DNA from: Myxococcota bacterium
GTDB lineage: Bacteria > Myxococcota > XYA12-FULL-58-9 > JALHOP01
Length of the DNA stretch: 64,000 nt
Reading direction: 5' to 3'
NCBI GenBank assembly: GCA_041288095.1
Contig: JBGGMJ010000211.1
Span: 63,725 to 127,724, forward strand
This document shows positions 22,366-38,929 of the stretch, one piece after another. A program made the translations under genes and the position numbers. How positions within the stretch are numbered: the first letter of the stretch is position 1; every line of letters begins with the position of its first letter. Below the pieces are notes generated by a model, which searched no databases, was not told the origin of the DNA, and was given only the letters and a program-made list of their open reading frames with translations.

Positions 22366-22373
22366 GGTCCTAG

Positions 22374-22402
22374 TTTTTCGGCAACCCACCCGCCGGCGGT
22401 GC
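22374..22402 (-). promoter_or_regulatory. putative sigma28-like promoter (GCACC-N16-CCGAAAAA) for the cfa fusion
   Basis: Recurring motif immediately upstream of ATG 22365. Confidence 0.5.
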
Positions 22403-22413
22403 GTGGACCCGCC

Positions 22414-22442
22414 GCACCGCCGCGTACCTTTTGGCCGATAAA
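22414..22442 (+). promoter_or_regulatory. putative sigma28-like promoter (GCACC-N16-CCGATAAA) for the desaturase
   Basis: Contains an exact GCCGATAA at 22434-22441. Confidence 0.6.
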
Positions 22443-23356: not shown

Positions 23357-24833
23357 ACATCACGCGCCTCACCGTCGCGCGATCGACGAGGCGGATGAAC
23401 CCGACCCCCACGGCAATCAAGGCGAGCCACACCACGACGTCGCCAGCGCGCACATAGACGGTCAACGAGTCGCGCAAGCCGACATCACCGGTGAGCACGG
23501 TTTGCTCACCCAGGGACGTCTGGCCACGCACCCGGCCGCGCGGATCGATGATGGTCGAGATACCGGTGTTGGTCGCGCGGGCCACCCAGCGATCGGTTTC
23601 GACGGCACGCAACACGTACGCGTCGCGGTGCTGGTACGGCCCGCTCGAGGCGCCATACCAGGCGTCGTTGGTGATATTCACGAGCAGACGCGACCCGTGC
23701 AGCGCGAGATTGCGACTGATGGCGGGGAAGATTCCGTCATAGCACACAAGCGCGCCCGCCTGCATGGTGCCGATGGGATCGGTGCGGCGCCCGGCGCTCA
23801 CCTCGCCCAGCTCGGGAACGATCGCGCTGACGGCCAAGAGACGCGCCAGCGGCACGTACTCTCCGAACGGCACCAAGGCGATCTTGTCGTGACGGCCGAG
23901 CACGGTGCCGTCCGGGCCGACCGCGAAAGCGGAGTTCGTCACGACGCTGCCGCCGTCCTCGAAGCGCAGGGTCGCCGCGCCCACGATCATGGGCACCGTG
24001 CCGGTCGCGAACGGGAACAAGGCGATGCGGGGATCGGGCCGGCCGGGCCACGCTGCCTCCGGCCAGACGACGAGCTGCGCGCCCTCGCCTTGCGCGCGCT
24101 TACTCAGCTCCTCGTAGGTCGCACGAATGGTCACGGCATTGTCGAGGTCGCGGTTCTTGATGTCCTGGGCGATGTTGCCCTGCAAGAGCCCCACGCGCAG
24201 CGTCTGCCCATCGGTGCCGGGATAGAACATGCGTATGCCGCCGGCGAGATGAATGAGCGCGACGAGGAGCCCTACCACCGCGCTCGACCAGGGTCGGCCG
24301 CGCATGTCGCCGATAGCCGCGCCACAGAGCGCCACCACCGCGGTGACGGCGTGGCTACCGCCCACGGCGGCAAGCTGCACCAGCGGCAGATCGCGCGCCA
24401 TCGCCCAGCTCCACTCGCCCCAGGGAAACGCGGCGATGACCCAGCCGCGCAACCAATCCACCGTGAGCACCGCCGCCGCGAACGCGAGATACGGGTGCAC
24501 CACGCGCACCGCTAACGCGGACAGTCGGGGAATGAGCGCCCAGTACGCGGCGCAATAGGCCACGAGCAACACCAAGGCAGGCAGCGCTTGCCAGGGCGGC
24601 ATGCCGCCGTAGCGGATCATGGCGATCGACAACCACCAGAGAAGCACCGAGAAGAAGCCGAGCCCCGCGGCGAAAGGCTCTCGTCCGCGATAGAGGTAAG
24701 CGACGCCGGCCAGCAGGAAGACCTCGCGAGGCAGCCACTCGAAGAGCGGCCCATCGCCGAACCCGGGCACGGCGAATGGGAAGGCCAGGGCCGAGAGGGC
24801 TCCGACCATCAAACCGAAGAGAATGCGGGTCAC
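23346..24833 (-). CDS. lnt: apolipoprotein N-acyltransferase
   Basis: FPW, QGNI, VWPEAA, KIALVPFGEYVP, CYDGIF, NITNDAWYG, RATNTGIS; start GTG at 24833. Confidence 0.93.
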   Translation of the reverse strand: MTRILFGLMVGALSALAFPFAVPGFGDGPLFEWLPREVFLLAGVAYLYRGREPFAAGLGFFSVLLWWLSIAMIRYGGMPPWQALPALVLLVAYCAAYWALIPRLSALAVRVVHPYLAFAAAVLTVDWLRGWVIAAFPWGEWSWAMARDLPLVQLAAVGGSHAVTAVVALCGAAIGDMRGRPWSSAVVGLLVALIHLAGGIRMFYPGTDGQTLRVGLLQGNIAQDIKNRDLDNAVTIRATYEELSKRAQGEGAQLVVWPEAAWPGRPDPRIALFPFATGTVPMIVGAATLRFEDGGSVVTNSAFAVGPDGTVLGRHDKIALVPFGEYVPLARLLAVSAIVPELGEVSAGRRTDPIGTMQAGALVCYDGIFPAISRNLALHGSRLLVNITNDAWYGASSGPYQHRDAYVLRAVETDRWVARATNTGISTIIDPRGRVRGQTSLGEQTVLTGDVGLRDSLTVYVRAGDVVVWLALIAVGVGFIRLVDRATVRRVMSSA

Positions 24834-24912
24834 TCCGGGGTGGGTACGCCATTGGCGTGCTCGCTTCCAGCCGTGTGTTACCTTCTTGTGTCCGGAGAGG
24901 GGCCGCTCCGGG

Positions 24913-26685
24913 ATGAAAGGTACCTCTTCGATGCTACTCGCTTGCTTGCGTGGGCGTGCTTGTCGCGGTGGATTCTTGATAGCGGCGTTGACGGTGGCGG
25001 GATGTGACGGTGACGACGGGCGCAATGGCCGCGATGGCGTTGACGGCGTCGACGGCACCAACGGCACGCCTGGCCAGGACGGCAGCGCCGGTTCGAGCTG
25101 CACGACTTCACAGAACGCGGCCGGCGATACCGTCATCAGTTGCACCGACGGCACCAGCGTCACCATCGACGCCAGCGGCAACGTCGTACCGCCGCCGCCC
25201 GTGGGTCTCGATCACCAGGCACAACAGCTGGTGCTGTCGGTCGACGTTCAGGCCGCTTACAACGGCACGACCATGTTCTGGCGCACGCGCTTCAAAGGTA
25301 ACGAGGGCAAGTACCAAGACTATTATCACTTCACGGGCGGTCGCTGGACGCTCGAAGGCCGCTCGCGGCGCGACACGGCGGCCAGCCTGCGCAACCCCAC
25401 CGATCCGCGCCAAGGGGACATCGACCCCGCGGTCGCCAATACGCATGAGTCGCGGATCGCGCTCATGTTCCATGACCCGGCGAACCCCAAGGTCCAGCAC
25501 TTCGAGAAGTACGGCTGCTTCATGACCTGCCATGACCGTCTGCGGCAGATGCCGCGCTGGACCAGCTCCGATGGCGACCGCACCAAATACATTCGCTTCG
25601 ATGACTCGGCGAATTGGTGGGACAAGCCGGTGGAAGCGAGCATCACGGTCGCGGGCACGCCGGTGCTCGACCTCTGGCATTGGCGGGCGCACCGCGGCCA
25701 TTTGATTGGCGCCGCCGACGACCAGACGGTGACCGCTGTCCGCGAGGCCGACAATGCGACGTCCGCGACGGCGGGCGCCGGCCGCAAGAGCGATGCGGGC
25801 ACGGCCGTCGTAAGCACGCAGAACCGCGTCGATGGCGGCGCCGGCACGTGCGTGGGGAGCGGCACTCAGCTCTGCACCGAGTTCGTCCTCGATCCGCTGA
25901 CGACCGGCGGCAAGTTCGTCTTCAAGTGGGAAGACTTCTTCAGAACGCCCTCGTTCTACATGACCACCGAAGCGGATGCGCAGACCGGGCCGCTGGCGCC
26001 GAATCCGACGCGTCTCGCCTGGGCTCAGGCGGTTGCCGGCGGCTACACGCCGAGTGAAGGCGACACCGTTCCCCGCCGCATCCTGCGCGCCGGCTCGGGC
26101 AGCGCCGCCGACATCAAGGACACCGGCACCACCTTCACGCGCCTGTCGCAATACGACGACTATGGCTTGTGGGACGTGCGCATGAGCCGCGCCTTGACCA
26201 CCGCCAACGCCGACGACGTCGACTTCACCGACGGCAACACGTACCACGTCGGCATCTCGTCGCATCTCTGGGAGTACGGCGGTCGCGACCACTATGCATC
26301 GCTCCCCTACTCGGTCGAGCTCACGGGCGCGGACCCCAGCGGCTCTGTCGCCGACATCAAAGCGGTACTCTTCGTGGGTACGACGCCCGATTGGGCGACC
26401 GTGCCGACGTTCCGTGCTTACCTCGTGCAGCCGGGCATCATGTCCTGGGACTTCCTCGTCGGCAATCTCACCGCGGCGACGTACAACGACCCGCTCACGG
26501 GCGACCCCGTCGACAACACACACGAAGGGGCCGACGAAATGCGGGCAGCGACGCACACGTGCGCCGATTGCCACACGGTGACCGAGGCGCAAGACCGCGC
26601 CACGCCGAGCACGGGCGGTTCGCTGGAGAAGACCATGCCGCAGCGCAAAGGCATCTTCTCCCTGACGCCGTTGCCGCCACTGTAA
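24913..26685 (+). CDS. lipoprotein c-type cytochrome with collagen-like repeat and ethylbenzene-dehydrogenase-gamma (EB_dh/DOMON-like) heme domain
   Basis: Lipobox VAGC, G-x-x repeats, VQAAYNG, ESRIALM, GCFMTCH (CxxxCH), DLWHWRAHR, C-terminal CADCH; start 24913 or 24931. Confidence 0.75.
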   Translation: MKGTSSMLLACLRGRACRGGFLIAALTVAGCDGDDGRNGRDGVDGVDGTNGTPGQDGSAGSSCTTSQNAAGDTVISCTDGTSVTIDASGNVVPPPPVGLDHQAQQLVLSVDVQAAYNGTTMFWRTRFKGNEGKYQDYYHFTGGRWTLEGRSRRDTAASLRNPTDPRQGDIDPAVANTHESRIALMFHDPANPKVQHFEKYGCFMTCHDRLRQMPRWTSSDGDRTKYIRFDDSANWWDKPVEASITVAGTPVLDLWHWRAHRGHLIGAADDQTVTAVREADNATSATAGAGRKSDAGTAVVSTQNRVDGGAGTCVGSGTQLCTEFVLDPLTTGGKFVFKWEDFFRTPSFYMTTEADAQTGPLAPNPTRLAWAQAVAGGYTPSEGDTVPRRILRAGSGSAADIKDTGTTFTRLSQYDDYGLWDVRMSRALTTANADDVDFTDGNTYHVGISSHLWEYGGRDHYASLPYSVELTGADPSGSVADIKAVLFVGTTPDWATVPTFRAYLVQPGIMSWDFLVGNLTAATYNDPLTGDPVDNTHEGADEMRAATHTCADCHTVTEAQDRATPSTGGSLEKTMPQRKGIFSLTPLPPL

Positions 26686-26691
26686 GCGACG

Positions 26692-27057
26692 CTAGGCGCC
26701 GAGGACCTTTTTGATGCCGGCGAGCAAGGCGTCGGGCTTGTACGGCTTGACGATCCAGGCCGTCGCGCCGGCGGCCTTACCCCGCTGAGCCGACTCCATG
26801 GCCGCGTCGGTGGTGAGGACGAAGATCGGCGTCTTGGCGTGCGCGGGGATCTGACGCACCTGACGGATCATCTCGAGGCCGTCCATCATGGGCATGTTCA
26901 TGTCGACGATGATGAGATCGATGGCGCTGCGTTGCGCGAGGGTCACGCCGCCGATGCCGTCTTGAGCCTCGACGACACCGAAGCCGCGGCCCTCCAGAAA
27001 AACGCGTAGCTGTTGGCGTACGGTCGCAGAGTCGTCGACCACCATGATCTGTTTCAT
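26692..27057 (-). CDS. stand-alone CheY-like response regulator
   Basis: VVDDS, D-MNMP-MDG, LTT, GATAWIVKP; GGAG SD before ATG 27057. Confidence 0.9.
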   Translation of the reverse strand: MKQIMVVDDSATVRQQLRVFLEGRGFGVVEAQDGIGGVTLAQRSAIDLIIVDMNMPMMDGLEMIRQVRQIPAHAKTPIFVLTTDAAMESAQRGKAAGATAWIVKPYKPDALLAGIKKVLGA

Positions 27058-27064
27058 GAGCTCC

Positions 27065-28162
27065 TCAGGGGCATGACACGAGGTTGGCGATCCATTCGCG
27101 AATGACATCGGCCGAGGGGTCCAACGTAAACGAGCCCAGCGGCGGCATCGTCGTCTCCAGCGGATCGGGCACTTCGGCGATCTCGTGCACCGTCGTCCAG
27201 AGCGGAGAGCCGTTCGGGTTGCGTGGTGTCACCTTGCTGCAAATCGCCGAATCGAGGAGCGACGTATCCCAGCGCATGTCGAGCACACTCGATACCACGG
27301 AGCCGCCCGGTTGATGGCAGTGCGCGCAATTGATGTGCAGATAACTGCGCATGCGCTCGTAGGTAGGCACGGCACTATCGGTGCTCGAAACCAGCGCGGG
27401 CAGCGTCGCTATCGCGGACTCCTCCGGCGGCGTGGTGAACAGGCCTATGTGCCCAATGGCGCGGATCTGGTTGTCGACCACGCCCGCGTAGTCGAAGTCC
27501 ATGTTCATGGTCGGCGTGTGGAGGCCAATCACGGAGCCGGCCTCCGCGGGATGGCACCGCAAGCAGTTGACGCGCGAGGGGAACAGATGCCGATGCGTCC
27601 CGGCCGGTAGATCGTAGGAGCCGACCTCTTGCGTCGCGAGCAGATCGGCATCGCTGCCGTCTTCACGCCAGCGATAGGTGTAGCCCCGCCAACGGTCAGG
27701 GTCGCGCAGGAAAAAGCGTGTCTCGAGCAGCCGTGCGCTGGTGTCGTCGCCGGGCACGACGTTGACGTAGAACTCCTTCATGATGATGGTGCCGACCGGC
27801 ATGATCCACGCGCCCGTCGTCGTGAAGCCGATGGTCGTGCCCGCCGGGATCGCGAAGTAGCGCTTCTTGTGCTCGCCGTCGGTCCACAGATGGATGCGCA
27901 GGTCATACGGGACGAATTCGGCGGCCGGCGTGTGCGCCGCGAGGTTGGCGTAGCAGTTGGTCTGCGAAACCAGCGGCGAGAGTAATGGCGGTTGTCCCGG
28001 TACCGGCGTCTGCACGACGCAGCTCACGGTGTCGACCCGCGCGGTTAGGCCATAAGGCTTGGGGCCGTCGTCATGTGTGTCCTGGTCGGTGTCGCCACCA
28101 CCACCCGGGGAAGGGCTGCAGGCGGCAAGCAAGAGGACCAACGGGCAACACCAACGCTTCAC
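27065..28162 (-). CDS. diheme c-type cytochrome lipoprotein (SO2930-like)
   Basis: Lipobox LAAC, LWTDG.HK.R, PVGT..KEF, LETR, CLRCH and RSYLHINCAHCH, MPPLG. Confidence 0.8.
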   Translation of the reverse strand: MKRWCCPLVLLLAACSPSPGGGGDTDQDTHDDGPKPYGLTARVDTVSCVVQTPVPGQPPLLSPLVSQTNCYANLAAHTPAAEFVPYDLRIHLWTDGEHKKRYFAIPAGTTIGFTTTGAWIMPVGTIIMKEFYVNVVPGDDTSARLLETRFFLRDPDRWRGYTYRWREDGSDADLLATQEVGSYDLPAGTHRHLFPSRVNCLRCHPAEAGSVIGLHTPTMNMDFDYAGVVDNQIRAIGHIGLFTTPPEESAIATLPALVSSTDSAVPTYERMRSYLHINCAHCHQPGGSVVSSVLDMRWDTSLLDSAICSKVTPRNPNGSPLWTTVHEIAEVPDPLETTMPPLGSFTLDPSADVIREWIANLVSCP

Positions 28163-28232
28163 ACCATCTTTGTCGTCGTGCGGCGACTGTTGTGCAAGCT
28201 CGGCGAGCCGCATCGTGGTAATTTCAAGACAC

Positions 28233-29105
28233 GTGTCACTTCCGAAGCAGGCGGTGCTGATCGGGCCCGCGAACGACGTTCGCAAGGCAGTCCAGGAGCG
28301 GCTGGCGGCGCTCGGGTTGCGGTGTGTCGTCGATGAAGGCGGCCGCGCCGAGAGCGTCCTCCGCACCACGCGACGGGTCGTCTTGGTGCTCATCGATGGC
28401 CGTAGCGCCATCGAGAATGTTGCCTGGGTGAAGTGGGCGAAAGACGCACATCCGCAAGCCGCAATCGCTTGGTTGCCGCCGGCGAAGAACGCTCCGGGAG
28501 AGTTGCGTGCGCTGGTCACCAAGGTCATCGACGAGACCCAACCGCAGCCCGTGCTCCGCGCCGCCGAGCTCACCCTCTCTTCCGCCCTCTTCCCACCCAA
28601 GCTCGTCGGAGTGTTGCGCGAGGCGGCCCAGGTAACGTTGCAGGAGCAGTTCAAGGTGACGCTGCCGCCAGCTCCGGCCGAGCTGCGTGGCGACTACGAG
28701 CCGCGTGACGAGGTCGCCGTCGCCGTCGCCTTCAACAGCGCGGCGCTGACTGGACATCTCACGCTGTTCGCTACCGCGGTCATGCTCGAAGAGCTGATGG
28801 TCGACGCCCATCGCACGCGCTCACCGGGTGAGGAGATCGCCGTCGAGCTCGCGAACCTCGTCGCCGGACACATGCGCAGCTTGTTGCTGCGCAGCCTCTC
28901 GGATTTCAGTTACAAAATCCCCGTGCGTTGGTCCGCCTCGAGCCGGGCGAGCATGGGGCCGCCGCCCGCGCTCGTGCTACCCGTGAGCCGCGGCACCCAG
29001 CGGCTCTGGCTCGAGCTGCGGCTCAATCACTTGGACGGGGAAGCGTTGAACCAGGTCAGCGAGCAAACGATTCTGCCAACGGGCTCTCTGAGCTTTCTCG
29101 AATGA
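28233..29105 (+). CDS. degenerate receiver plus CheX-like phosphatase
   Basis: N-terminal receiver-like VVLVLID; C-terminal CheX motif ELANLVAG; start estimated (GTG 28233). Confidence 0.6.
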   Translation: MSLPKQAVLIGPANDVRKAVQERLAALGLRCVVDEGGRAESVLRTTRRVVLVLIDGRSAIENVAWVKWAKDAHPQAAIAWLPPAKNAPGELRALVTKVIDETQPQPVLRAAELTLSSALFPPKLVGVLREAAQVTLQEQFKVTLPPAPAELRGDYEPRDEVAVAVAFNSAALTGHLTLFATAVMLEELMVDAHRTRSPGEEIAVELANLVAGHMRSLLLRSLSDFSYKIPVRWSASSRASMGPPPALVLPVSRGTQRLWLELRLNHLDGEALNQVSEQTILPTGSLSFLE

Positions 29106-30355
29106 CCCGTTCCGGTCCTCTGCGTGTCGCGGGTCTGTTGCTGCTCGGTTCCACCCTCACGGGCAGCAAGTGCGTGAGCTACGACGAGCGGCTGACGGTG
29201 CCCAGCGATCCGAACAACGCCGGTGACGCCGACGGCGATGCCGACCCCGGCGACGGGACCGTGACGGAGTGCCTGCCGCCCGAGCCGGTTTACGACCTGA
29301 ACGAGATGCGTCGCGCCGCCTGTGTCGGCCTGCGCTGCGCCTCACAGCGCGCCTCTGCATTCTGGTTCGACGCTTGGGAAGATCACGACGTCGTCCGTGT
29401 CGTCCGCTTTCGCGATGACGCTCCGGGGCCGCGCTTCGACGTCACCGACGAGCAAGGCGCGCCGTCGAGCCTCGCGTTCGTCCAGGGTACGCCGGTGACG
29501 CTGATCGTCCGCAACGAGGGTGATGCCGGGGTCAGCCGAGCTTATGACTTCACCGCGCCGCTCCTCTTCCACCACGTCGCCTGGCGCGACATCGCGACGA
29601 GCGACGGCACCTACGAAGCCGCGACCTTCGACGCGGTGTTGCCCGGCTACGCTAGTGGCCAGCGGCGCGAGGTCGTGATCGCGTTCGTCCCCATCGAGCG
29701 CGGCACCTTCGACGTCTACTCGTCGGGCGGCGTCGTCAACGGCACCGCCTATTCCGCTATCGCGTCCGGAACGGCGACGCCTGATCTCGCGACCGGCGAC
29801 GCGGGCCAGGGCATGAAGACGACGCTCACGATCACGGGCGATTCCCCGTTGACTCTGTTTCGGGGCAGCGACGTCGACCGCGATGCGCGCCTCGACGACG
29901 ATCCGCGCCGCGCCGCGAGCGACCCAGTATGGGACCCAGGCAACCTGCGCACGGTGACCATCGACGCGGTCGAGGCACAGAACCCCGATACCGGCGGAGA
30001 CATCTTCACCTTTCAGTGGAGCTCACTCGCCTTCCCGGTGAACGTCGCTCACGTGATCGAGCTGCACAGTGTCGCGGCCAACCGCTACCAGCACAACTTC
30101 ACCGCCCTGGGTCTCATGCGTGGCTCGGTGAACCGCGGCGTCAGCGACAGCCAAACCGAGGTGCGCGCGGCTTCGTACGACAGCATCAACATCGTCGCGG
30201 GCAAGACCATCCGCATCTACTTCGTGCCCACCGTCATCGCCCGCTACGAAGTTTTCTGCCAGCTGGGGATCGTCTTCAGCAGCAACGGTCAGCCCGACCT
30301 GCAATCGGGACACGCGGGCGCCGGCATGCACGATGTGGTCGAGGTCGTGCCGTGA
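29102..30355 (+). CDS. exported two-domain cupredoxin-like protein
   Basis: ATGA coupling; internal repeat. Domain 2 has HNF...FC...GH...GM (type-1 Cu ligands); domain 1 has YDF...YS...GD...GM. Confidence 0.7.
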   Translation: MTRSGPLRVAGLLLLGSTLTGSKCVSYDERLTVPSDPNNAGDADGDADPGDGTVTECLPPEPVYDLNEMRRAACVGLRCASQRASAFWFDAWEDHDVVRVVRFRDDAPGPRFDVTDEQGAPSSLAFVQGTPVTLIVRNEGDAGVSRAYDFTAPLLFHHVAWRDIATSDGTYEAATFDAVLPGYASGQRREVVIAFVPIERGTFDVYSSGGVVNGTAYSAIASGTATPDLATGDAGQGMKTTLTITGDSPLTLFRGSDVDRDARLDDDPRRAASDPVWDPGNLRTVTIDAVEAQNPDTGGDIFTFQWSSLAFPVNVAHVIELHSVAANRYQHNFTALGLMRGSVNRGVSDSQTEVRAASYDSINIVAGKTIRIYFVPTVIARYEVFCQLGIVFSSNGQPDLQSGHAGAGMHDVVEVVP

Positions 30356-31167
30356 GAGCGATCTGGGTCGTCGTCGCGGGCCTCATGGTGTCCTCGGCGG
30401 CACGCGCGTATCCCCCGTATCGCCGGCTCGCCATGGTGCACTACGGGGCACCCGTGGGCTGCGAGCTATGCCACGCGCGCGCCGACAGCACCGAGCGCAG
30501 CGCCTACGGACGGGCGTGGCACGACAAGGGCGAAAACGAGAGCGCCTTCGGACCGCTCGAGGGGGGCGACCTCGACGGCGACGGCACGCGCAACGTCGAC
30601 GAGATTCGCGGCGGCTCCGACCCCAATGACCGGGAAAGCACGCCGTCGAGCCCGGGCAAATACGCCAAGCGGGCACAGGTCACGCACATTCCCGTCGAGC
30701 AGCTCCAACTCGTGGCCGAGGCCGTCGAGCGTTACGACGTCGTCGAGCCCACCTTGAGTCCCGCCCAACTCGCGAAGCTCGAAGCAGGCCTCGGCCGCAC
30801 CGCCACAGCGGACGAGAGATTGCCTACCCTTTATCTCGCGGTGCGCGGGGGCAAGCCCGACGAGGTGTTGGTCTTCAGCCACGCCGGCGCCGGCAAGCTC
30901 GAGGTGTCGCTGTTGCTCGCGATTGGCACCGACGGCAGAGCACGGCGCATCGCCCTCTATCGCGCTGGTGGCGATGACGGCGCGCGTTTCCAAGCTTATC
31001 TGCGCTGTTTCAGCGGACGCGGAAAAGACGACATCGCGAGACGCGCCGCGCTCGAGTGCGCCGGCGCCTCCGCCAAGAACGCGACCGACAAACAGCTGAA
31101 CGCGGTCATCGCGGAATCCGTGCGGGCGGCGCTATGGCTGGTGTTCACCGCCTTCGGAGCGAGCTGA
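30352..31167 (+). CDS. monoheme cytochrome c with a DxDGDG calcium-binding-like repeat
   Basis: GTG start overlapping the previous stop; signal peptide ending ARA-YP; CELCH; DLDGDGTRNVDEI..GSDPND. Confidence 0.7.
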   Translation: MRAIWVVVAGLMVSSAARAYPPYRRLAMVHYGAPVGCELCHARADSTERSAYGRAWHDKGENESAFGPLEGGDLDGDGTRNVDEIRGGSDPNDRESTPSSPGKYAKRAQVTHIPVEQLQLVAEAVERYDVVEPTLSPAQLAKLEAGLGRTATADERLPTLYLAVRGGKPDEVLVFSHAGAGKLEVSLLLAIGTDGRARRIALYRAGGDDGARFQAYLRCFSGRGKDDIARRAALECAGASAKNATDKQLNAVIAESVRAALWLVFTAFGAS

Positions 31168-31177
31168 TGGTGCGACC

Positions 31178-31783
31178 TTGAACCCAGAAGGTCTCGACCT
31201 CAATCGGTACGCTCCTGTCGCGAGCGCCCCGCCACCGGCGAGCGTCGGCTGGGTCGTGGCGGCAATCGTCCTGTTCGTGCTGTTCATCGCGCTATCAGCG
31301 ACATTGGCGGCGCGCTGGCTGCCGTCCGCTATCGAAGACGACGCCCTGCTCCCACGCGCGTCGCGTCCGGTGCGACTGCTCGTGCTCGTTACCTTGGTCG
31401 CGCTCCTCGGGGTCCAAGCGCTCGGGGCCATCGACGTCTTCGTCCAGACGCGCATCGTCTACGACGACGCCGGGGCCTACTTCGCGCACCTGTCGCTGGG
31501 ACGTCTCGTCGGCACCAGCCATGCGCACCTATTCGGCTACGCCTTGCTCTACGGCATGGTGGCGCTCTTTGCCTGCATGAGCGCCGCGCCGCCGGCGTGG
31601 AAGCGCTGGCTGGTGGCGGCGTTGTGCTGGGCTGGCCCGTTCGACATCGCGTCGTGGTGGGGCATGAAGTATCTCACCGCGCGCTTCGAGCTGCTGTCGC
31701 ATGCCACCGCGCTGGCGAGCGTCGGCGCTAGTCTCGCGACTCTGCTGCTCGTCGCATCCGCCGTTCGCAAGGCGCCCGCGTGA
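31178..31783 (+). CDS. multi-pass membrane protein with SHAHLFG motif
   Basis: About 5 hydrophobic segments; His pair could ligate heme or metal. Confidence 0.65.
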   Translation: MNPEGLDLNRYAPVASAPPPASVGWVVAAIVLFVLFIALSATLAARWLPSAIEDDALLPRASRPVRLLVLVTLVALLGVQALGAIDVFVQTRIVYDDAGAYFAHLSLGRLVGTSHAHLFGYALLYGMVALFACMSAAPPAWKRWLVAALCWAGPFDIASWWGMKYLTARFELLSHATALASVGASLATLLLVASAVRKAPA

Positions 31784-34437
31784 GCCGACAAACCACCAGC
31801 ATTCGGCGGCGCCTGTTGCTCGCCGTTCTGCCGGTGATGACGGTGGCTCTGCTCGCGGCGCTGCTCGTCGCCACCGCCACCGCGCGGCGCGGCCTGTCAT
31901 CGCTTTCGGATACGAACCTGACGCTCACCGCCGAAAGCCTGGCTGACGCCATCGGCCAGACCGTCGCGGACGCTTTGGCGGACACGGTGACCGCGGCGCG
32001 GCTCGATCTCGCTGCCGAAGCCGTCGAGACCGGTGACCCGAAGAACTTCGACTGGTACGCCGACGAGCTGGTGCTGGGGAAACGCAAGTACTCGGGGCTC
32101 GCGGTCGCCGACAACGCCGGCAAGGCGGTCGCGGCGAACGCCATCGACCGCACGGGCAAGCCCCTGACGCAGCTCATTCGCGGCGGCGTCCTCGAGGCCG
32201 CGGTGGTCGGCCGGCTCGCGGGCGCGGGCAAAGACGCCTCGGCGGCGTTCGGCCCCGGCGAGGCAAGCGCGTTCGCCGGCGGGCGCAGCGTCGGCTTCGT
32301 CGCGCCGGTGTTCGATATCGTCGACGAGCGCATCGGCACCGTGGTGCTCGGGCTCGCGCTCGACTACTTCGCGGCGCGGCTGGCCGCGGCGAGCGTGGTC
32401 AGCTCGAGCCGCGTGGATTCGCTCGCGGTGATCGTCGACGGCCAGGGCAGTCCGCTCGTTTGGCCGGAAGGTATCGCGGCGGAGGGCTGGCGGACGGGTG
32501 GCGAGAGCTGGCGCGCAGCCGATGGCTCGCTCTATCGGGCGGTGAGCCGCCCCGTCCCCCCGCCGGCGGACCGCTTCGGCTGGTCGATCGTCGCGCTCAA
32601 GACCGATGCGGCGCTCGCCGCGCCGGTGAACGCCATCACCAACCGTATCCTGCTCGGCACCGGCATCTCGCTGCTCGCCGCGCTGGCGCTGCTCATGTTC
32701 ACCACCACGCGCATCGTCGAACCACTACGGCGGCTCACCCGCGCCGTCACCACCACCGAACGGGCCGGCGGCTTCGTCGCGTTACCGGTCGAGACGAACG
32801 ACGAGACAGGCGCGTTGACGGCATCGGTGAACGCCATGATGGACACGATCCGATCCTACGAGAGCGACCTCGAGGCCAAAGTGCGCGCCCGCACCGCCGA
32901 GCTCGCCGCCGCCAAGCGTGAGCTCACCGACATCTTCGACAACATGGAGCAAGCCATCTTCACGGTGAACGCCGAGGGGACGGTAAACGCCCAGTACTCC
33001 GCGGCGTCGCGACGCATCTTCGGTCACGAAGACATCGCCAAGCGGCCGGCGCACGAGCTGCTGCAGTTCGCGGCGCCCTGGAACGGCGCCGACGAACGCA
33101 TGCGGCTTTGGCTCGCCAGCATCATCGGTGCCGATGACCTTCAGTGGACGCTGGCCGCCGAGGACCCGCCCTCACGCGTCCGCTATCGCAAGCAGGACGA
33201 CGAGACGCCGCGCAACGTCATCGATCTGCAGTATGTGCCCATTTACGACGCCGGCGCGGTGGCCAAGGTGATGATCATCGCCACCGACGTGACCCGCGTC
33301 GTCGACCTCGAGCACGAGCTGCGCGCGCAGGCCGAAGAGAACCGACTGACCGTGGAGCGCGTCAGCGAGATCATCAGCATCGACCCGCGGCTATTCACTA
33401 CCTTCATGAACGAGGCGCGGGCGCTGACCGACGATGCCCAGACGAAGTTGGATGCGATTGGCGGGGGCGACGAGGCGGCGCTGCGCGAGCTGTTCCGCGC
33501 CATGCATACGCTCAAGGGTAACGCGCGTATCTTCCGCCTCACCAGCATCCAGAATGCCGCGCACGCCGTCGAAGACGAGCTCGACATCATGCGGGCGGGC
33601 AAGGCAAGCCAGGAGGCGCTGCCGCGCTTGCGCGAGAGTGTCGCGACGCTCACCAAGCTGGTCACGGAGTTCGAGAGACTCGCGACGCGCGTTGTCGGCA
33701 CCCAGGGCGCCGGTGACGCCGTGGGGCAAGCCGTGGTGCGTGTGCGCGAGGCTCACGTGCTCGCGCTGCGCCGCGCCTTCAAGGATCTGCGCGAGCGGCT
33801 GCGCGCGACTGGCGGCGAAGGGGAAGCGCTGGCGCCGCTCGGCGAAGCCATCGTCGCTCTCGGCCGCGTACCTTTCGGCAGCGTCATTGCGCGCTATCAA
33901 CGCGAGGTGCTCGACATCGCCCGCGAGCAGCAGAAACGCGTCCACGAGGTCGCGGTCATCGGCGAGGCTGTCGAGGTGGATGGACGCCTGGCGGACAAGC
34001 TCGGCATCGTTCTCATGCACGTCCTGCGCAACGCCATCGATCACGGCATCGAAGCGCCGGACCAGCGAGCGGCCGCCGGCAAGACGGCTCAGGGCACCAT
34101 CAAGGTCGAGCTCGTCGTGACCGGCGACACGCTGCGGCTCAGCGTCACCGACGATGGCGGCGGCATCGACTACGCTCACGTACGCGATCTCGCATACGAG
34201 CGCGGCCTGCTCGGCGAAGACGCCATCGCGGACGATGCGGCGCTCACCGAGCTGCTCTTCACGCCCGGCTTCTCGACCGCCCGCGTCGTCACCGCCATCT
34301 CGGGTCGCGGCGTCGGCCTGGACGTGGTACGCACAGCGGTGCGAGACCTTCGGGGCGAAGTCCACATGACGTCGCGGCGCGGGCAAGGCGCGACGATCGA
34401 GGTCCACCTGCCGTTACGCGACCAAGAGGCGATTTGA
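31780..34437 (+). CDS. transmembrane CheA-like histidine kinase: periplasmic Cache-like, HAMP, PAS, HPt, HATPase; no CheW domain
   Basis: Two TMs, HAMP (NDETGALTASVNAM), HPt LFRAMHTLKGNA, HVLRNAIDHGIE, DDGGGID, FTPGFST, SGRGVGLD; protein ends right after the ATPase. Confidence 0.88.
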   Translation: MSRQTTSIRRRLLLAVLPVMTVALLAALLVATATARRGLSSLSDTNLTLTAESLADAIGQTVADALADTVTAARLDLAAEAVETGDPKNFDWYADELVLGKRKYSGLAVADNAGKAVAANAIDRTGKPLTQLIRGGVLEAAVVGRLAGAGKDASAAFGPGEASAFAGGRSVGFVAPVFDIVDERIGTVVLGLALDYFAARLAAASVVSSSRVDSLAVIVDGQGSPLVWPEGIAAEGWRTGGESWRAADGSLYRAVSRPVPPPADRFGWSIVALKTDAALAAPVNAITNRILLGTGISLLAALALLMFTTTRIVEPLRRLTRAVTTTERAGGFVALPVETNDETGALTASVNAMMDTIRSYESDLEAKVRARTAELAAAKRELTDIFDNMEQAIFTVNAEGTVNAQYSAASRRIFGHEDIAKRPAHELLQFAAPWNGADERMRLWLASIIGADDLQWTLAAEDPPSRVRYRKQDDETPRNVIDLQYVPIYDAGAVAKVMIIATDVTRVVDLEHELRAQAEENRLTVERVSEIISIDPRLFTTFMNEARALTDDAQTKLDAIGGGDEAALRELFRAMHTLKGNARIFRLTSIQNAAHAVEDELDIMRAGKASQEALPRLRESVATLTKLVTEFERLATRVVGTQGAGDAVGQAVVRVREAHVLALRRAFKDLRERLRATGGEGEALAPLGEAIVALGRVPFGSVIARYQREVLDIAREQQKRVHEVAVIGEAVEVDGRLADKLGIVLMHVLRNAIDHGIEAPDQRAAAGKTAQGTIKVELVVTGDTLRLSVTDDGGGIDYAHVRDLAYERGLLGEDAIADDAALTELLFTPGFSTARVVTAISGRGVGLDVVRTAVRDLRGEVHMTSRRGQGATIEVHLPLRDQEAI

Positions 34438-34438
34438 C

Positions 34439-34924
34439 GTGAGCGGTCCGCCGAAGCTGTTGGGTCTCGCCGCGCTGCTGTGCGCCGTCGTCTCGCCGAG
34501 TCGCGCTCGTGCTGAGCTCAAGACCCTCGGCGTCGGCGACAAGATGGCCATGGTGCGCGACCAGTTTCCGCCGGAGCAGCAGGCCCGCTACGATGTCTTC
34601 AAGGTGCGCTGCACCAAATGCCACGCCATGGCGCGCCCCATCGCCGCCTTGCGCACCGGTACTTCGCCCGTGACCGGCGGCGTGTTCGACCAGGACACCT
34701 TGAAGAAGTACGTCGTGAAGATGATGCGCAAACCCAACTCGGGCATCGCCAAGGACGAGGCACGCGAGATCCTCACCTTCCTCTCGTTCGCGTTGACGCT
34801 CACTGAAGACGAGCGGGCCCACATGCCGCCACAGCTGCCCCCATCCGAATCGGCGGAACCCCCAGCAAGCGAGCAGCGTGCCAGTGATTCTCCGACACCA
34901 TCGCCAGAGCCGGCCCCGCACTGA
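34439..34924 (+). CDS. periplasmic monoheme cytochrome c
   Basis: Signal peptide ending ARA, CTKCH, distal Met region KMMRK. Confidence 0.8.
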   Translation: MSGPPKLLGLAALLCAVVSPSRARAELKTLGVGDKMAMVRDQFPPEQQARYDVFKVRCTKCHAMARPIAALRTGTSPVTGGVFDQDTLKKYVVKMMRKPNSGIAKDEAREILTFLSFALTLTEDERAHMPPQLPPSESAEPPASEQRASDSPTPSPEPAPH

Positions 34925-34961
34925 AGTCTGCTATGATGAAGCCCGAGGTAGTCGCTTGATC

Positions 34962-35846
34962 GTGAAGAAGTACCTCCTCATCTTCGTTGGCTCGGGCCGC
35001 GACGAGCTCCTCCATCTGACACCGCATTTGAAGGCGTTGAACTTCGAAGTCGGTTGGATCGCGCAAAGCGAGCAAGCCAGGGAGGTACTCTCAAGCGCGG
35101 ATTGCCTCTCGCTGGTGCTCATCGATGCGACCGACACGGCCGAGACCGAGCGCGGCGTCGTTAGCTTCATTCGCGAGCGGCAACCGCGGCTCCCGATCAT
35201 CTGGATCCAGCGCAAGGGCGCGGTACCGATCTTCAGTGGTCCTCCTCCCGACGTGATCTTGCAGGGCCATGTCGAGCCGGATGTCCTGACCGCTGTAGCG
35301 GCCACGCTGCTGCGCGAGCGCTTCTACACGCGCGGCCTCGTCGACGACCTGGTGGCGAGCGTCGTCGGCATCGGTCGCGAGAGCTTCGGCACCGAGCTCA
35401 CCCCGGCGGATCCAGTGCTGAAGTCGACCACCGAACAGATCTCGGGTCTGTCTACCCTGCTCTACTTCGCCGGCAGCGGTGTAGCCGGGCACGTCATCGC
35501 TGGTGCCGCGCCCGAGTACCTCATCACCCTGCACCAGCGTTTGCTGCCGAACATCGCGAAGCCCACTCTCGAACAGCTCGCGGATCTTCTGGGCGAGCTC
35601 GCAAACCAAGTCGTCGGCCGCCTCCGCTCGCAGCACGGGCTGGTCTTCGATGTCGGCGCACCCCTGCTCGTGCGCGGTGCCAATGTCGTCGTGCGCCAGG
35701 TCGCCGGCAGCCCGGCGCTGCTCGTCTCGTTCCACGATGGTCCGTCGCGCATCGACATCGAGCTGTGCCTGCACCGCTTCGATGAGCGATTGACAGTGCG
35801 GCAAGTCACCTCGTCGCTACCCCCCGGCGAGCTCGTTTTCTTGTGA
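34962..35846 (+). CDS. degenerate receiver plus CheX-like phosphatase (second copy)
   Basis: LSLVLID; ADLLGELANQVVG CheX motif; TGcTATGAT extended -10 upstream. Confidence 0.7.
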   Translation: MKKYLLIFVGSGRDELLHLTPHLKALNFEVGWIAQSEQAREVLSSADCLSLVLIDATDTAETERGVVSFIRERQPRLPIIWIQRKGAVPIFSGPPPDVILQGHVEPDVLTAVAATLLRERFYTRGLVDDLVASVVGIGRESFGTELTPADPVLKSTTEQISGLSTLLYFAGSGVAGHVIAGAAPEYLITLHQRLLPNIAKPTLEQLADLLGELANQVVGRLRSQHGLVFDVGAPLLVRGANVVVRQVAGSPALLVSFHDGPSRIDIELCLHRFDERLTVRQVTSSLPPGELVFL

Positions 35847-36292
35847 GGAAGCTCGGCACGCTGTCGCTCACCGTAGCGCTTTGGCTCGGCACGACCGCCG
35901 GCAAGTGTGTCGGTTACGATGAACGCTTGGTGCCCCCGACGGCGCTGCCGGGGGGTGATGGCGGTGCCGTGGTCAGCGCGACGCCCTGCCCAGACCCGAG
36001 CGAAGCGATCCTCGCGGTCGAGGAGTTCGCATTCATCGTCCGGTGCGGCTGCCTCGAGCCGCCGGGCGTCTACACCGAAGACGACAAGCACTGCACCATT
36101 CCCGTTGGGACCACCGTGACCTGGATGTTCCAGGGCAGCCAGCAGCACAATGTCGCGAGTGAAGCCTTCGCCGACTCGCGGCCGCGCACCACCGGCCGAT
36201 ATTCGGTGCCGTTCGATACACCGGGCGTCTACGACTACTCGTGCTCGTTGCACATCGGGCAAATGAGCGGCTACTCGATCATCGTCCGCTAA
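35843..36292 (+). CDS. plastocyanin-like blue copper protein
   Basis: VGTTVTW, HNV, FDTPGVYDYSCSLH...M (C-x2-H-x3-M). Confidence 0.85.
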   Translation: MRKLGTLSLTVALWLGTTAGKCVGYDERLVPPTALPGGDGGAVVSATPCPDPSEAILAVEEFAFIVRCGCLEPPGVYTEDDKHCTIPVGTTVTWMFQGSQQHNVASEAFADSRPRTTGRYSVPFDTPGVYDYSCSLHIGQMSGYSIIVR

Positions 36293-36297
36293 AGCGA

Positions 36298-37479
36298 CTA
36301 AATACCCACGAGGAGCTGCAACGACCCGAAGAGCGAGTCGTCATCGTCGGCGTAGCCCATCGCGAGGCGCGCCCGAACGTTCTCGAACGCCAACGCCAAG
36401 AGGCCGAGCTGATACTGGGTGAAGGCGCTACGAGCCGCGGCGGCGTCCTGATAGTCGATCTGGCCGGCCACGGTGAGCCAAGCGGTGACGCCGTACGAAA
36501 GCTCCGTGGTGTTGGTGATGCTGCGGTTGGTGAGGTCGACGCGCCGGTCGACGTCGGCGCCGAGCATCACGCCGTTGCGCAGTCTCAAAGCACGAAAACC
36601 GAAGCGGATGTCGCCGCCCACGCGCCGCAGCTCGTATCCAGGCACGCCGAAGTCACCACTCAGCCCGTAGTAACCCCACTGCGCCAGCTCGACGGAGATG
36701 TCGTCGACCCACGACGTTTCTTCGAGGTCGATGTCGGGCTCCTCGCCCAACCAATTGGCGCCGCCGAGCTTCAGGCTCGCATGATAGTAGGCGTCGAAGT
36801 TCGAGTCCGCCCCGGCGTTCTGCACCATGCCTACCGCGTAGAAGCCGCGTTTCCACAAGACGCCGTTCACCTCGAGACCGTTGCGCCCCTGGCCGAGCAC
36901 GTGACCGTCGACCGGCGAGCCGCTGACCGCGAAGGTATCGAAATAGCTGTCGTTGGCGCGTAGGAGCGTCGTCGTCGGCTCGAAGCGACCGATGATGACG
37001 TTGAGCTCGCGGCGGTTGGCGAGACGCGTGAGGTGGACGAACAACCGGTTCGGCGCGCCGCTGCCTGTCCATTCCGTGAACAGGGCCGCGTGCTCACCAA
37101 GCGTCGTTCCCAACATCACCTTGAGCGACGGCGAGCCGAAGCCGATGGGATGCTCGAGCTCATCGTCGTTGCTGTAGCTTGCGCCGAAGGTGCCGATGAA
37201 CGCGACGGGCACCACGAGCGGAAAGGTCGCGTCCATGAAGCCGATGCCGAGCATGGGCAGAGGCTCGGGCTTACGCGCGCGCGCATCGACGTCGAGCTCA
37301 CCCGGCCAACGATAGCCGTTGCGACGGAAGATCTCGCCGAACTCGTTACGCACCGGGATGGTCGCGTGACACGTCGAGCACGGCACCTGGTAGGCGCGGG
37401 CGAACGCCGGCAAGGCCCGTGCTACCGACGGCACCGCTACGCTCGCGAGCACGATGAGCCCGAACCAGGCGAAACGCAC
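36298..37479 (-). CDS. Cyc2-like fused monoheme cytochrome c / outer membrane porin
   Basis: After the signal peptide: ALPAFARAYQVPCSTCH..P..NEFG..F..NGY, followed by about 300 aa of amphipathic beta-strands. Confidence 0.75.
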   Translation of the reverse strand: MRFAWFGLIVLASVAVPSVARALPAFARAYQVPCSTCHATIPVRNEFGEIFRRNGYRWPGELDVDARARKPEPLPMLGIGFMDATFPLVVPVAFIGTFGASYSNDDELEHPIGFGSPSLKVMLGTTLGEHAALFTEWTGSGAPNRLFVHLTRLANRRELNVIIGRFEPTTTLLRANDSYFDTFAVSGSPVDGHVLGQGRNGLEVNGVLWKRGFYAVGMVQNAGADSNFDAYYHASLKLGGANWLGEEPDIDLEETSWVDDISVELAQWGYYGLSGDFGVPGYELRRVGGDIRFGFRALRLRNGVMLGADVDRRVDLTNRSITNTTELSYGVTAWLTVAGQIDYQDAAAARSAFTQYQLGLLALAFENVRARLAMGYADDDDSLFGSLQLLVGI

Positions 37480-37511
37480 GCCGCGAGGATACGTGAGAAG
37501 CGGCCGACGAC

Positions 37512-37937
37512 CTAACGTTTCAACAAACGCAGGAGCCGCTCTTCTTCGCGCTTCATCTTGCGGGCCTGGGTGCCCCCATGAACGTGGTCGTGTCCGACGA
37601 GATGCAAGATGCCGTGGACGAGCAGCCGGTCGAGCTCGGCCTTCAAGTCGTTACCGAACTTCGGCGCCTGGCGCGCGGCGGTCTCGACGCTGATGATGAC
37701 GTCACCCAGGACGCGCGTGCGCTCGAAGTCCGCCTGAGGGAACGAGAGGACATCGGTCGGCTTGTCCTTGTCGCGCCACTGCCGATTCAGCCCGTGGATG
37801 GTCGCGTCATCGGTGAGCACGAGCGAGAGCTCGGCGTCCTCGAAACCGATGCCGGCGAGAACCTGTTTGGCTTTTCGACTCAGGTCGCGGACCGACACCC
37901 GTCGGTCACGCGCCTGATTATCGATGATTACACTCAA
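37512..37937 (-). CDS. ybeY: rRNA maturation RNase YbeY
   Basis: LNRQWRDKDKPTDVLSF, LGDVIIS, HGILHLVGHDH. Confidence 0.95.
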   Translation of the reverse strand: MSVIIDNQARDRRVSVRDLSRKAKQVLAGIGFEDAELSLVLTDDATIHGLNRQWRDKDKPTDVLSFPQADFERTRVLGDVIISVETAARQAPKFGNDLKAELDRLLVHGILHLVGHDHVHGGTQARKMKREEERLLRLLKR

Positions 37938-38426
37938 CTACTTCCGCTCGATGTACTCGGCTTCGTAGTAGTTGCCCTTCTTCTCGCCGATGCGGACAGC
38001 GACCTTGTCGCCTTCCTGCAGGTAGAACGCGCCCGCGTTGAGCATGGTCTGCGGGTCCTTGAGCTCGACGTTGCCGCCCGTGATCTTGAGCTTCGGCACG
38101 ACGACGATCTTCTCGTTCGACTTCACATCCTTGCCGGCCCCTTCCTTGGCGGGCTTCTGCACGTTGAGGCGCAGCGCCACGACCGGGAAGCCCTTGGTGT
38201 TCACCTCGACGACCTTGGCCTCGAAGTTCTTGCCGTCGTTGAGCCGCTGCGTGCGGCCGACGTCGCCTTCTTTCTTGGCGCGAATCGAACCACCGGCTTC
38301 CGGCTGCGCCTCACCGACGGCGTTGCCCAACGCGGCGAGCTCCGCGAGTGGATCGGACCCTTGCGCAAGAACGCGCGCGGCTGCCAGCAGAATTACACCC
38401 ATCACCAACACCTTGTTCATTGTCAT
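37938..38426 (-). CDS. exported hypothetical protein
   Basis: Signal peptide, GGAG SD, Lys-rich beta-strand body. Confidence 0.7.
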   Translation of the reverse strand: MTMNKVLVMGVILLAAARVLAQGSDPLAELAALGNAVGEAQPEAGGSIRAKKEGDVGRTQRLNDGKNFEAKVVEVNTKGFPVVALRLNVQKPAKEGAGKDVKSNEKIVVVPKLKITGGNVELKDPQTMLNAGAFYLQEGDKVAVRIGEKKGNYYEAEYIERK

Positions 38427-38929
38427 TCTCCCTGAGGCACAGGCTGTTGTTCGCTCTTCGAGGAGTCAATGCGCGGTTTGCGCAAGACGCCGTACTTCGT
38501 GACTTTGAGCTCGCCGGATAGCAGCTTCGTGCCGGCGACCCAAACCTTGGCACCGGCCATGGGCATGAGCTTGCTCAAGGTCCGTGCACCGAGATTCAAT
38601 GGAATGGCGTCGGCATCGCCGTCGCGCAAGGCCAAGCGGTCGCCTGTCCGCTCGAGCATACCGACGAAAGGCTTCACTCCACCGCCGACGTCGATGATGC
38701 GGTACTCGCGGACGTCCATGCCGTCCTTGGCGGGAAAGCCGACGATCTCGACTTTCAAGGATTGGAGCTGGGCCACTTCCTCGGCGAGCTCGCCGGTTAC
38801 CGTCATGGTCTTGGCGTCGTCGAACACCTGGACGCCACGATCCTGCGCGGGGCCAACCACCCGTACCATGCCGACCATGGTGATCGGGTCATTGGCCGCC
38901 AGCGTCAACGCCAGAGCGAGGGTCAACAT
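38423..38929 (-). CDS. exported hypothetical protein (two short beta-rich repeats)
   Basis: ATG overlapping the upstream stop, signal MLTLALALTLAA. Confidence 0.65.
   Translation of the reverse strand: MLTLALALTLAANDPITMVGMVRVVGPAQDRGVQVFDDAKTMTVTGELAEEVAQLQSLKVEIVGFPAKDGMDVREYRIIDVGGGVKPFVGMLERTGDRLALRDGDADAIPLNLGARTLSKLMPMAGAKVWVAGTKLLSGELKVTKYGVLRKPRIDSSKSEQQPVPQGE

Follow-up and report, generated by a model that had tools for sequence, protein, structure and literature searches.

A strain-specific island in a Myxococcota bacterium encodes a Cyc2 sister-clade haem-porin, candidate redox partners and a CheW-less sensor kinase

Introduction

Do twelve genes lying between lnt and ybeY in a Myxococcota bacterium encode a path for electrons through the cell envelope, and is such a path tied to a chemotaxis-type output? 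The genes are found in a 64,000-nucleotide stretch of contig JBGGMJ010000211.1 (assembly GCA_041288095.1, positions 63,725 to 127,724 of the forward strand), called the window below; all coordinates without a locus or contig handle refer to it. A first-pass annotation, made from the sequence of the window, had proposed an envelope redox-sensing or electron-transfer island in which a Cyc2-like porin-cytochrome, cupredoxins and cytochromes are wired to a CheA-like kinase, two CheX proteins and a CheY. The follow-up analysis described here centres on the porin-cytochrome (hereafter the haem-porin), which belongs to a sister clade of Cyc2, and on a set of partner genes that recurs with it in other genomes.

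Among marker genes for microbial iron oxidation at neutral pH, Cyc2 is the main one, and the envelope path downstream of it and the control of that path are largely open. In Acidithiobacillus ferrooxidans, Fe(II) oxidation proceeds through the rus chain of Cyc2, Cyc1, rusticyanin and an aa3 oxidase.

A sister clade of Cyc2

The haem-porin (gene 12; 36298-37479, minus strand) has 393 residues and matched no Pfam or NCBIfam family. Its CSTCH motif (residues 34-38) is the only one of its kind in the protein and follows a signal peptide, and the CXXCH pattern was unchanged in 12 of 12 aligned homologues. Cyc2 is defined, in an excerpt of Keffer et al. (2021; PMC8406198), by a single CXXCH, an upstream AXPXFAR[Q/K][T/Y], a downstream PXL and at least 365 residues with a 16-stranded porin. 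The single N-terminal CXXCH after a signal peptide is thus shared with Cyc2.

A model of the haem-porin was built with AlphaFold (AF2) from a 12-sequence alignment and reached a moderate mean pLDDT of 63.5. The N-terminal 85 residues were of low confidence, and residues 86-391 formed a barrel of about 15-16 strands. Foldseek searches with this model gave 248 matches in the PDB at E <= 0.001, with 16-stranded porins at the top, including OprP (2o4v) and OprO (4rjw), which are the same templates as those given for Cyc2 in the excerpt of Keffer et al. (2021; PMC8406198). At >365 residues and with a predicted porin of about 16 strands like OprO and OprP, the protein resembles Cyc2 in length and in predicted fold.

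The haem-site segment reads ALPAFARAY-QVP-CSTCH-ATI-PVR. As in the Cyc2 proteins of A. ferrooxidans and Mariprofundus (Cyc2PV-1) treated in that excerpt (PMC8406198), AxPxFAR.Y stands three residues before the haem site. Two elements of the published definition differ: Ala replaces [Q/K] (A-L-P-A-F-A-R-A-Y), and P-V-R stands in the place of PXL. Across the clade, the [Q/K] position is A, T, N, E or Q, two members (L127 and L130) have FGR instead of FAR, and the downstream element is x-R-R-N/S-E. A motif table of all related loci separated two types. The canonical type reads FAR[K/R]Y-x-TSC-x-TCH-xxx-P[K/V/R]L in proteins of about 440-600 residues; P-[KVR]-L is found downstream at most of these loci, with a few variants (PKN, PNL and PAL). 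The type found here, named RRNE after its downstream motif, reads FAR[A/T/N/E/Q]Y-x-VPCS-x-CH-xxxx-RRNE; it has VPC for TSC and x-R-R-N-E for PXL, and its members are shorter (385-450 residues).

A search of 5.8 billion protein clusters with the haem-porin gave 12 word-index matches including itself, eight of them at 37-44% identity and three, from longer proteins, at about 30%. A quick maximum-likelihood tree (IQ-TREE, 87 rows) set the 14 rows of the clade apart from 73 rows with canonical motifs, on a branch of length 1.49 (SH-aLRT 100). The haem-porin is therefore placed in a sister clade of Cyc2 that has a Cyc2-like architecture and lacks two of the published sequence features; the term 'Cyc2-like' used in the first-pass annotation stands as a statement of resemblance in architecture and in AxPxFAR.Y, and does not extend to these two motifs. 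Since the clade departs from them, a screen with the published motifs would drop most of its members.

Genes that recur with the haem-porin

Relatives were sought in a phylum sample of 401 genomes, and the island proteins were compared by tblastn with seven related loci. Some Cyc2-like match was present in 88 of the 401 genomes, and an orthologue of the clade haem-porin in only seven besides the host (E <= 4e-54; next best 3e-26). Three of the seven belong to one family, with a GC content of about 49-51%, and four to another (64-68%).

The small cupredoxin (gene 11; 35843-36292, plus strand) was present at all seven related loci, and the small monohaem cytochrome c (gene 9; 34439-34924, plus strand; CTKCH, assigned by alignment) at six, the contig of the seventh ending; the latter was also found at L128, L129 and L207. 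A helical inner-membrane protein (gene 7; 31178-31783, plus strand) was detected at four loci (L121-L124) and again at L207, the CELCH monohaem protein (gene 6; 30352-31167, plus strand) at three, and the large cupredoxin-like protein (gene 5; 29102-30355, plus strand) at one, in two copies (L122). Full-length orthologues of the transmembrane sensor kinase (gene 8; 31780-34437, plus strand) adjoin the Cyc2-like gene at three loci (L121, L123 and L124), and two more loci have a match to its N-terminal 390 residues only. Co-occurrence in other genomes, on which the first-pass annotation had staked its proposal, was accordingly found for the haem-porin with its small cupredoxin and small cytochrome c, and also for the sensor, which lies next to them in six of the seven phylum genomes that have it. 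It was not found for the EB_dh and SO2930-family proteins, CheY and the two CheX proteins (CheX-1 and CheX-2), each absent from all seven related loci.

Four contigs of the clade were found in JGI metagenomes, and two of the four also carry the small cupredoxin and the cytochrome c: the gene order is cupredoxin, cytochrome c and porin at L128, and cupredoxin, porin, cytochrome c and a large cupredoxin-like gene at L129. L130 has a large cupredoxin-like gene with the porin; at L127, probably the same locus, the porin is followed by an overlapping Ser/Thr kinase gene. None of 76 canonical Cyc2-like metagenome contigs carries the partner families of the clade.

A small-cupredoxin profile matched the full-length family (E <= 3e-34) in exactly the eight porin-bearing genomes of the phylum sample and in one more, G228. 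All other matches (E >= 9e-13) covered the generic C-terminal half only, and several of these lie within 2.5 kb of canonical Cyc2-like genes. Pairing of Cyc2 with a cupredoxin is thus common in the phylum, and the partner family is the specific part. In G228, contig C243 (L207, 1-8587) encodes the cytochrome c (64% identical), the CELCH protein, the membrane protein and the cupredoxin, directly upstream of, and on the same strand as, genes for a globin-PAS-MCP, CheB, a complete CheA and CheW.

The core, consisting of the haem-porin, small cupredoxin, small cytochrome c and sensor, often with the CELCH, membrane and large cupredoxin-like proteins, is a real recurrent unit, and it moves between lineages of very different GC content.

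Two further features were recorded at the related loci. At L127 (1388-3592), the gene of a PEGA-domain Ser/Thr protein kinase begins on the clade haem-porin's stop codon; further Ser/Thr kinases lie close by at L129 and L122, which could be due to chance in kinase-rich genomes. In the family of low GC content, a desulfoferrodoxin-like open reading frame lies just upstream of the haem-porin at L119 (10096-10782) and L120 (7092-7667), and the other family has different genes there.

The island and its borders

The borders of the block were defined by DNA comparison (19.9 kb) with three genomes of the same genus (G001, G002 and G003). Homology of 76-87% runs through lnt (23346-24833, minus strand), ends at 24833-24850 and restarts at 37518, within ybeY (37512-37937, minus strand). 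The intervening 24834..37517, about 12.7 kb with genes on both strands, is present in the host and missing as one piece from all three congeners, in which the gap between the lnt and ybeY homology blocks is 14 bp (G001), about 30 bp (G002) and 43 bp (G003). The kinase, haem-porin and cupredoxin were found nowhere else in these three genomes. As lnt abuts ybeY in all of them, the block is a strain-specific island. The closest relative in the flanks is G002 (86-87% identity), followed by G001 (80%) and G003 (76-78%); with the block absent from the nearest relative as well as the other two, one gain in the host lineage would be the simplest history.

No repeat of 10 nt or more was found at the island ends (the sole match is a 9-nt inverted one), the Pfam scan detected no integrase or transposase domain in the twelve products, and the composition of the island is the same as that of its flanks (GC of about 0.64-0.70 in this region of the window). 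Three public DNA runs from one soil study, which may be the assembly's own source samples, were also used. Contigs assembled separately for two of these runs span both junctions without differences, so that assembly error does not explain the arrangement. No 'empty site' joint was found among the DNA runs, listed joints with sides of 20-24 letters not being taken as real.

The presence of twelve genes between lnt and ybeY was borne out by the open-reading-frame listing, the analysis of third-position GC (GC3) and the Pfam and NCBIfam scans, and the seven haem motifs (CFMTCH, CADCH, CLRCH, CAHCH, CELCH, CTKCH and CSTCH) all lie where they had been claimed. The genes occupy both strands in four transcription blocks. 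The junctions noted on first pass as translationally coupled were borne out as overlaps: stop and start codons overlap as ATGA once and as GTGA three times, linking genes 4-5, 5-6, 7-8 and 10-11, and a single base separates the kinase gene (gene 8) from the next one, for the cytochrome c (gene 9). A scan for promoters and terminators gave no promoter-like and seven terminator-like sites, which is at chance level. In another data set, close relatives of the kinase (78% identical) and of the CELCH protein (83% identical) appear to share one 11,005-bp contig, as judged only from the equal 11,005-bp figure given for both. Another public contig, of 223,741 bp, likewise appears to carry close relatives, namely a haem-porin and a sensor hybrid kinase.

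Putative redox partners

The small cupredoxin is a Cys-rich type-1 protein that matches PF00127 at 23.2 bits (cut-off 21.2). Its copper ligands (H102, C134, H137 and M141) are invariant in nine of nine orthologues, as are four extra cysteines (C49, C68, C70 and C84); both the model match and the His/Cys/His/Met set expected of a type-1 copper protein are thus present. The claim of two type-1 copper proteins held in full for this one. In the large cupredoxin-like protein, two domains were assigned from a motif pattern and an alignment of homologues. Its C-terminal H...C...H-x4-M is present in three of three homologues, the N-terminal site is degenerate in the window copy, and no significant Pfam match and no PDB sequence match was obtained, the cupredoxin label here coming from the motif pattern alone. 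Homologues occur at L122 (two), L129 and L130. Both cupredoxin-type proteins of the island have an unusual N-terminal K-C-V-x-Y-D-E-R-L directly after the signal sequence, in which the Lys before Cys sets it apart from a canonical lipobox; among full-length orthologues of the small one, most also have K-C-[VI]-x-Y-D.

The small cytochrome c has an invariant C-x-x-C-H and a conserved MMRKPNS stretch. The CELCH protein combines an N-terminal haem motif and a calcium repeat of the TSP3 type with a C-terminal domain that has the FMN_bind fold of RnfG and NqrC. It differs from the periplasmic FMN-binding RnfG/NqrC subunits in the added c-type haem motif and calcium-type repeat, and no Rnf or Nqr complex is encoded alongside it. 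In an alignment of four sequences, no conserved Ser/Thr-Gly-Ala-Thr flavinylation motif was visible by inspection. Sequence searches of the PDB with this protein gave only EF-hand matches at chance level.

The membrane protein of gene 7 matched clusters of the Aq_1264_TM family (PF27139) in the ESM Atlas with a feature score of 0.95 and a structural TM score of 0.84. Its SHAHLFG and SWWG motifs are invariant in the alignment, and about four membrane helices were counted by eye. A full-text literature search for Aq_1264 gave no paper.

The sensor kinase, CheY and CheX

The kinase has two membrane helices around a periplasmic Cache-type domain of about 250 residues (about 36-285; weak dCache_1 matches), followed by HAMP, a weak PAS-like region, a histidine phosphotransfer (HPt) domain with an H-T-L-K-G motif and a CheA-type ATPase. 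The HPt (PF01627, E 1e-11) and ATPase (PF02518, E 3e-19) correspond to CheA domains P1 and P4, and the NCBIfam CheA models align to residues 681-878. With its H-T-L-K-G phospho-His context and CheA-type ATPase, the protein resembles CheA; it differs in being membrane-anchored, with a periplasmic sensor, HAMP and PAS of its own, in having no detectable P2, H-kinase_dim or CheW-like P5, and in scoring 200 against a 950-bit CheA cut-off. The P3 H-kinase_dim (PF02895) gave no match in the kinase at E <= 0.01, as against E 9e-13 in the canonical CheA of L207, and the P5 domain (PF01584) gave none. These Pfam and NCBIfam scans agree with the proposed CheW-less transmembrane HPt-ATPase kinase. Also in keeping with the first-pass annotation, the Pfam scan detected no MCP, CheW, CheR or CheB domain in any of the twelve products; the 13 CheW-domain matches of the host genome are all on other contigs.

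The alignment of the sensor domain shows no invariant Cys, His or Met able to bind a redox cofactor. Invariant Asp, Lys, Phe, Tyr, Glu and Trp residues are grouped around a DPKNF-WYADEL block. The domain was found in seven of the 401 phylum genomes, six of which are porin-bearing genomes with the sensor gene 7 bp to 2.4 kb from the haem-porin. Its output varies: the host and three genomes of one family have an HPt-ATPase, G008 has an adenylate/guanylate cyclase, and G016 has a HisKA kinase with a receiver-cyclase after it. The seventh, in G228 (contig C48), heads a PAS-HATPase kinase with an HDOD regulator.

A word-based search with the sensor region gave two matches only, and a profile search without the word index was used instead. 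Among 1.84 billion representatives, this profile matched 35 proteins at E <= 1e-30 and 55 at E <= 1e-10. The best 38 matches were scanned for domains: about half have HAMP-HPt-ATPase, six MCP signalling domains, about six HisKA or other HATPase kinases, and one a cyclase. One protein (P0029; 4,858 residues) joins the same periplasmic sensor and HAMP to 13 matched HPt stretches and a C-terminal ATPase, making it an extreme multi-HPt kinase. The whole kinase was rejected as a query, returning only generic CheA cores of unrelated phyla that were useless for synteny.

A chemotaxis-type signalling link is plausible, given that the redox core of L207 precedes a che operon and that the sensor is fused to MCP modules elsewhere. 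The lone CheY claimed for the island was recovered as a single receiver (gene 2; 26692-27108, minus strand; PF00072, E 7e-26). Its DD, D, T and K positions, with the usual acidic pocket, were read from the sequence, and its best NCBIfam matches include CheY, all below cut-off.

CheX dephosphorylates CheY. CheX-1 (gene 4; 28233-29105, plus strand) and CheX-2 (gene 10; 34962-35846, plus strand) are collinear full-length paralogues (26% identity; pairwise E 2e-8), each with a degenerate receiver-like part and a CheX-type part. CheX-2 passes the family threshold of PF13690 (32.5 bits; cut-off 27). CheX-1 has no Pfam match of its own and was assigned by its paralogy to CheX-2. They share an aligned E-L-A-N motif (E-x-x-N), which we take to be the CheX catalytic pair. 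Unlike other CheX/CheC-type CheY-P phosphatases, which they resemble in the PF13690 match of CheX-2 and in the E-x-x-N of both, they are two diverged paralogues fused to an N-terminal receiver-like domain without an acidic pocket. These N-terminal parts do not match PF00072, and that of CheX-2 gave only weak matches to receiver-like folds; of the claim of two receiver-CheX proteins, the CheX half was borne out by the family model for CheX-2 and is likely by paralogy for CheX-1, and the receiver half was not recognised by PF00072.

Discussion

Taken as a whole, the reading that we tentatively favour, at a little under an even chance, is that the island was acquired horizontally and has at its centre a conserved module for electron transfer in the envelope. 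This module would provide a path for a small redox-active solute, probably Fe(II), together with a dedicated ligand-binding sensor, here in the form of a one-chain receptor-kinase that signals to CheY with CheX-type resetting. By analogy with Cyc2, the monohaem porin would exchange electrons at the outer membrane with a redox species that is small and diffusible, Fe(II) being the most likely. From the haem-porin the electrons would pass to two dedicated periplasmic carriers, the small cytochrome c and the Cys-rich blue-copper protein. The inner-membrane end is likely to be formed by the RnfG/NqrC-like haem c protein and the Aq_1264-type membrane protein. The ligand of the Cache-type sensor is most likely a small periplasmic one, for instance the metal substrate or product, bound in a pocket of conserved Asp, Glu, Lys, Tyr and Trp, and we consider ligand binding more likely than that the sensor takes electrons itself. 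Fused to HPt and the CheA-type ATPase, it would be receptor and kinase in one chain without CheW. The kinase would phosphorylate the island CheY, from which the two CheX-type proteins would quickly strip the phosphate. The EB_dh protein, the SO2930-family dihaem protein and the large cupredoxin-like protein would be accessories added in this island.

Compared with the rus operon, the island likewise encodes an outer-membrane haem-porin with a cupredoxin and periplasmic cytochrome(s). It differs in that no oxidase gene was detected in the Pfam scan of the twelve products, in that the cupredoxin is of another, Cys-rich family with a C-x2-H-x3-M loop, in the addition of an RnfG-like haem protein, an Aq_1264-type membrane protein and a sensor, and in a host without an autotrophy marker. 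Two haem-copper oxidase subunit I genes, on other contigs, and one FliM are encoded in the host genome (5.85 Mb, 90% complete). No RuBisCO large subunit was detected in it, which makes lithoautotrophic iron oxidation unlikely; the host looks like an aerobic heterotroph and not a classical iron oxidiser.

Several results weigh against an Fe(II) path with a dedicated sensor. Besides the improbability of lithoautotrophy, the island has no terminal oxidase or quinone-reducing enzyme. Without [Q/K], and with PVR or xRR for PXL, the haem environment of the haem-porin, and hence its substrate, may differ from that of Cyc2. No Cyc2-like gene was detected by profile in G228, whose genome is 97% complete and whose contig C243 breaks off a short way upstream of the cytochrome c gene; the G228 sensor has no island gene within 10 kb of it, and the redox core is on the other contig. 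Another genome (G083) has the redox core and no sensor match. All the synteny evidence is carried by about nine lineages, in which related genomes are not independent. CheY and CheX were not found beside the orthologous kinases, and their part in a phosphorelay is a guess made from their being neighbours in a single genome; as read from the sequence, the receiver-like parts of both CheX proteins also lack the acidic pair. No RNA sequencing run was listed as containing the stretch.

The redox chain could itself be the input. The sensor would then dock the cupredoxin or the cytochrome c and read its oxidation state, and electron flux through the porin would be turned into CheY phosphorylation, giving redox or 'electron-donor' taxis. 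The tight co-localisation of the sensor with the redox proteins while its outputs vary fits this idea, as does the position of the G228 core before a che operon with a globin-coupled, haem-based MCP receptor, and the four extra invariant cysteines of the cupredoxin could form a second site or a docking surface. The idea is weakened by the lack of an invariant Cys, His or Met, that is of cofactor ligands, in the sensor; moreover, Cache domains usually bind small molecules, and in G228 the sensor and the core are on different contigs. We regard it as unlikely. The same low standing is given to its fuller form, in which the porin, cupredoxin and cytochrome c are the antenna of a behavioural pathway, and the Cache receptor senses electron flow from an extracellular donor directly or through the redox state of a docked carrier and, by way of CheY phosphorylation, drives taxis to or from donors such as Fe(II). 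If so, the pathway would exist in two builds, the one-chain receptor-CheA fusion of the island and the classical MCP/CheW/CheA arrangement of G228 and of the MCP-fused sensors.

Protection of the periplasm against metal or oxidative stress is a serious rival in view of the neighbouring genes and the heterotroph-like host. Fe(II) or Cu(I) that enters the envelope would be oxidised by the module, and the signalling input would be of the stress type. A dihaem cytochrome c peroxidase (L123), the desulfoferrodoxin-like open reading frame (L119 and L120) and an SCO1/SenC copper chaperone (L122) are found near the haem-porin; the lack of a detected RuBisCO large subunit in the host agrees with such a role, and cyclases and Ser/Thr kinases are not taxis outputs. 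These neighbours vary between loci, however, the desulfoferrodoxin matches are weak (27 bits against a cut-off of 22.2 at L120, and 20.2 bits, below it, at L119), and MCP and CheA-type partners suggest behaviour rather than stress transcription; on balance we give protection a small chance. That a variable region has gathered the twelve genes by chance, as cargo without a common function, is very improbable. Five of them were found at no related locus, they lie on both strands in four transcription blocks, and no mobility gene marks a single transfer. Against this, a core of seven genes recurs as a set in several families of the phylum whose GC contents range from 49% to 73%, eight genes form one operon with overlapping codons, and the block is missing as one piece from every congener. 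For the core, chance aggregation is essentially excluded.

All types of part in the island are already known. No description of their combination was found in a limited search of titles and abstract starts in the open-access literature, which covered Cyc2 with cupredoxin, Myxococcota or histidine kinase, and CheW-less transmembrane CheA-like proteins; absence from the literature is not proven by it. What is new is a sister clade of Cyc2 that is missed by the standard screen and has fixed partner families; a candidate inner-membrane end, made of the RnfG-like haem protein and the Aq_1264-type protein; a dedicated sensor domain distributed across CheA-like, MCP, HisKA and cyclase outputs; and a clean presence/absence polymorphism inside one genus.

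With its fixed set of one cupredoxin and one cytochrome c, the clade offers the haem-containing RnfG-like protein and the small His-bearing membrane protein as concrete candidates for the inner-membrane end. Together with the dedicated sensor, the module is a small defined system in which the substrates of porin-cytochromes and their perception by the cell can be tested, and strains of the genus with and without the island are a natural comparison. Since the host resembles an aerobic heterotroph, the system may show a non-lithotrophic use of Cyc2-type proteins.

Accessory genes and neighbouring regions

Two further haem proteins are encoded in the island. Gene 1 (24913-26685, plus strand; PF09459, 97.7 bits) encodes an EB_dh lipoprotein with a VAGC lipobox, collagen-like repeats, a DOMON-type haem domain, CFMTCH and a C-terminal CADCH. 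Gene 3 (27065-28213, minus strand) encodes a dihaem c-type cytochrome lipoprotein of the SO2930 family with CLRCH and CAHCH (TIGR03806, 183.8 bits, below the cut-off of 313). Four more paralogues of the latter, at 30-38% identity, are present in the host genome on contigs C202, C164, C134 and C129.

On the lnt side of the island, an 878-residue fusion of a methyltransferase like cyclopropane fatty acid synthase with a flavin amine oxidase lies divergent from a gene of the fatty acid desaturase family (19753-23356). The two may be a lipid-modification pair and are kept in the flank of the congeners. Beyond ybeY, three consecutive open reading frames on the minus strand (37938-40572; 162, 247 and 547 residues) match no Pfam or NCBIfam family, and their region is conserved at the DNA level in the three congeners.

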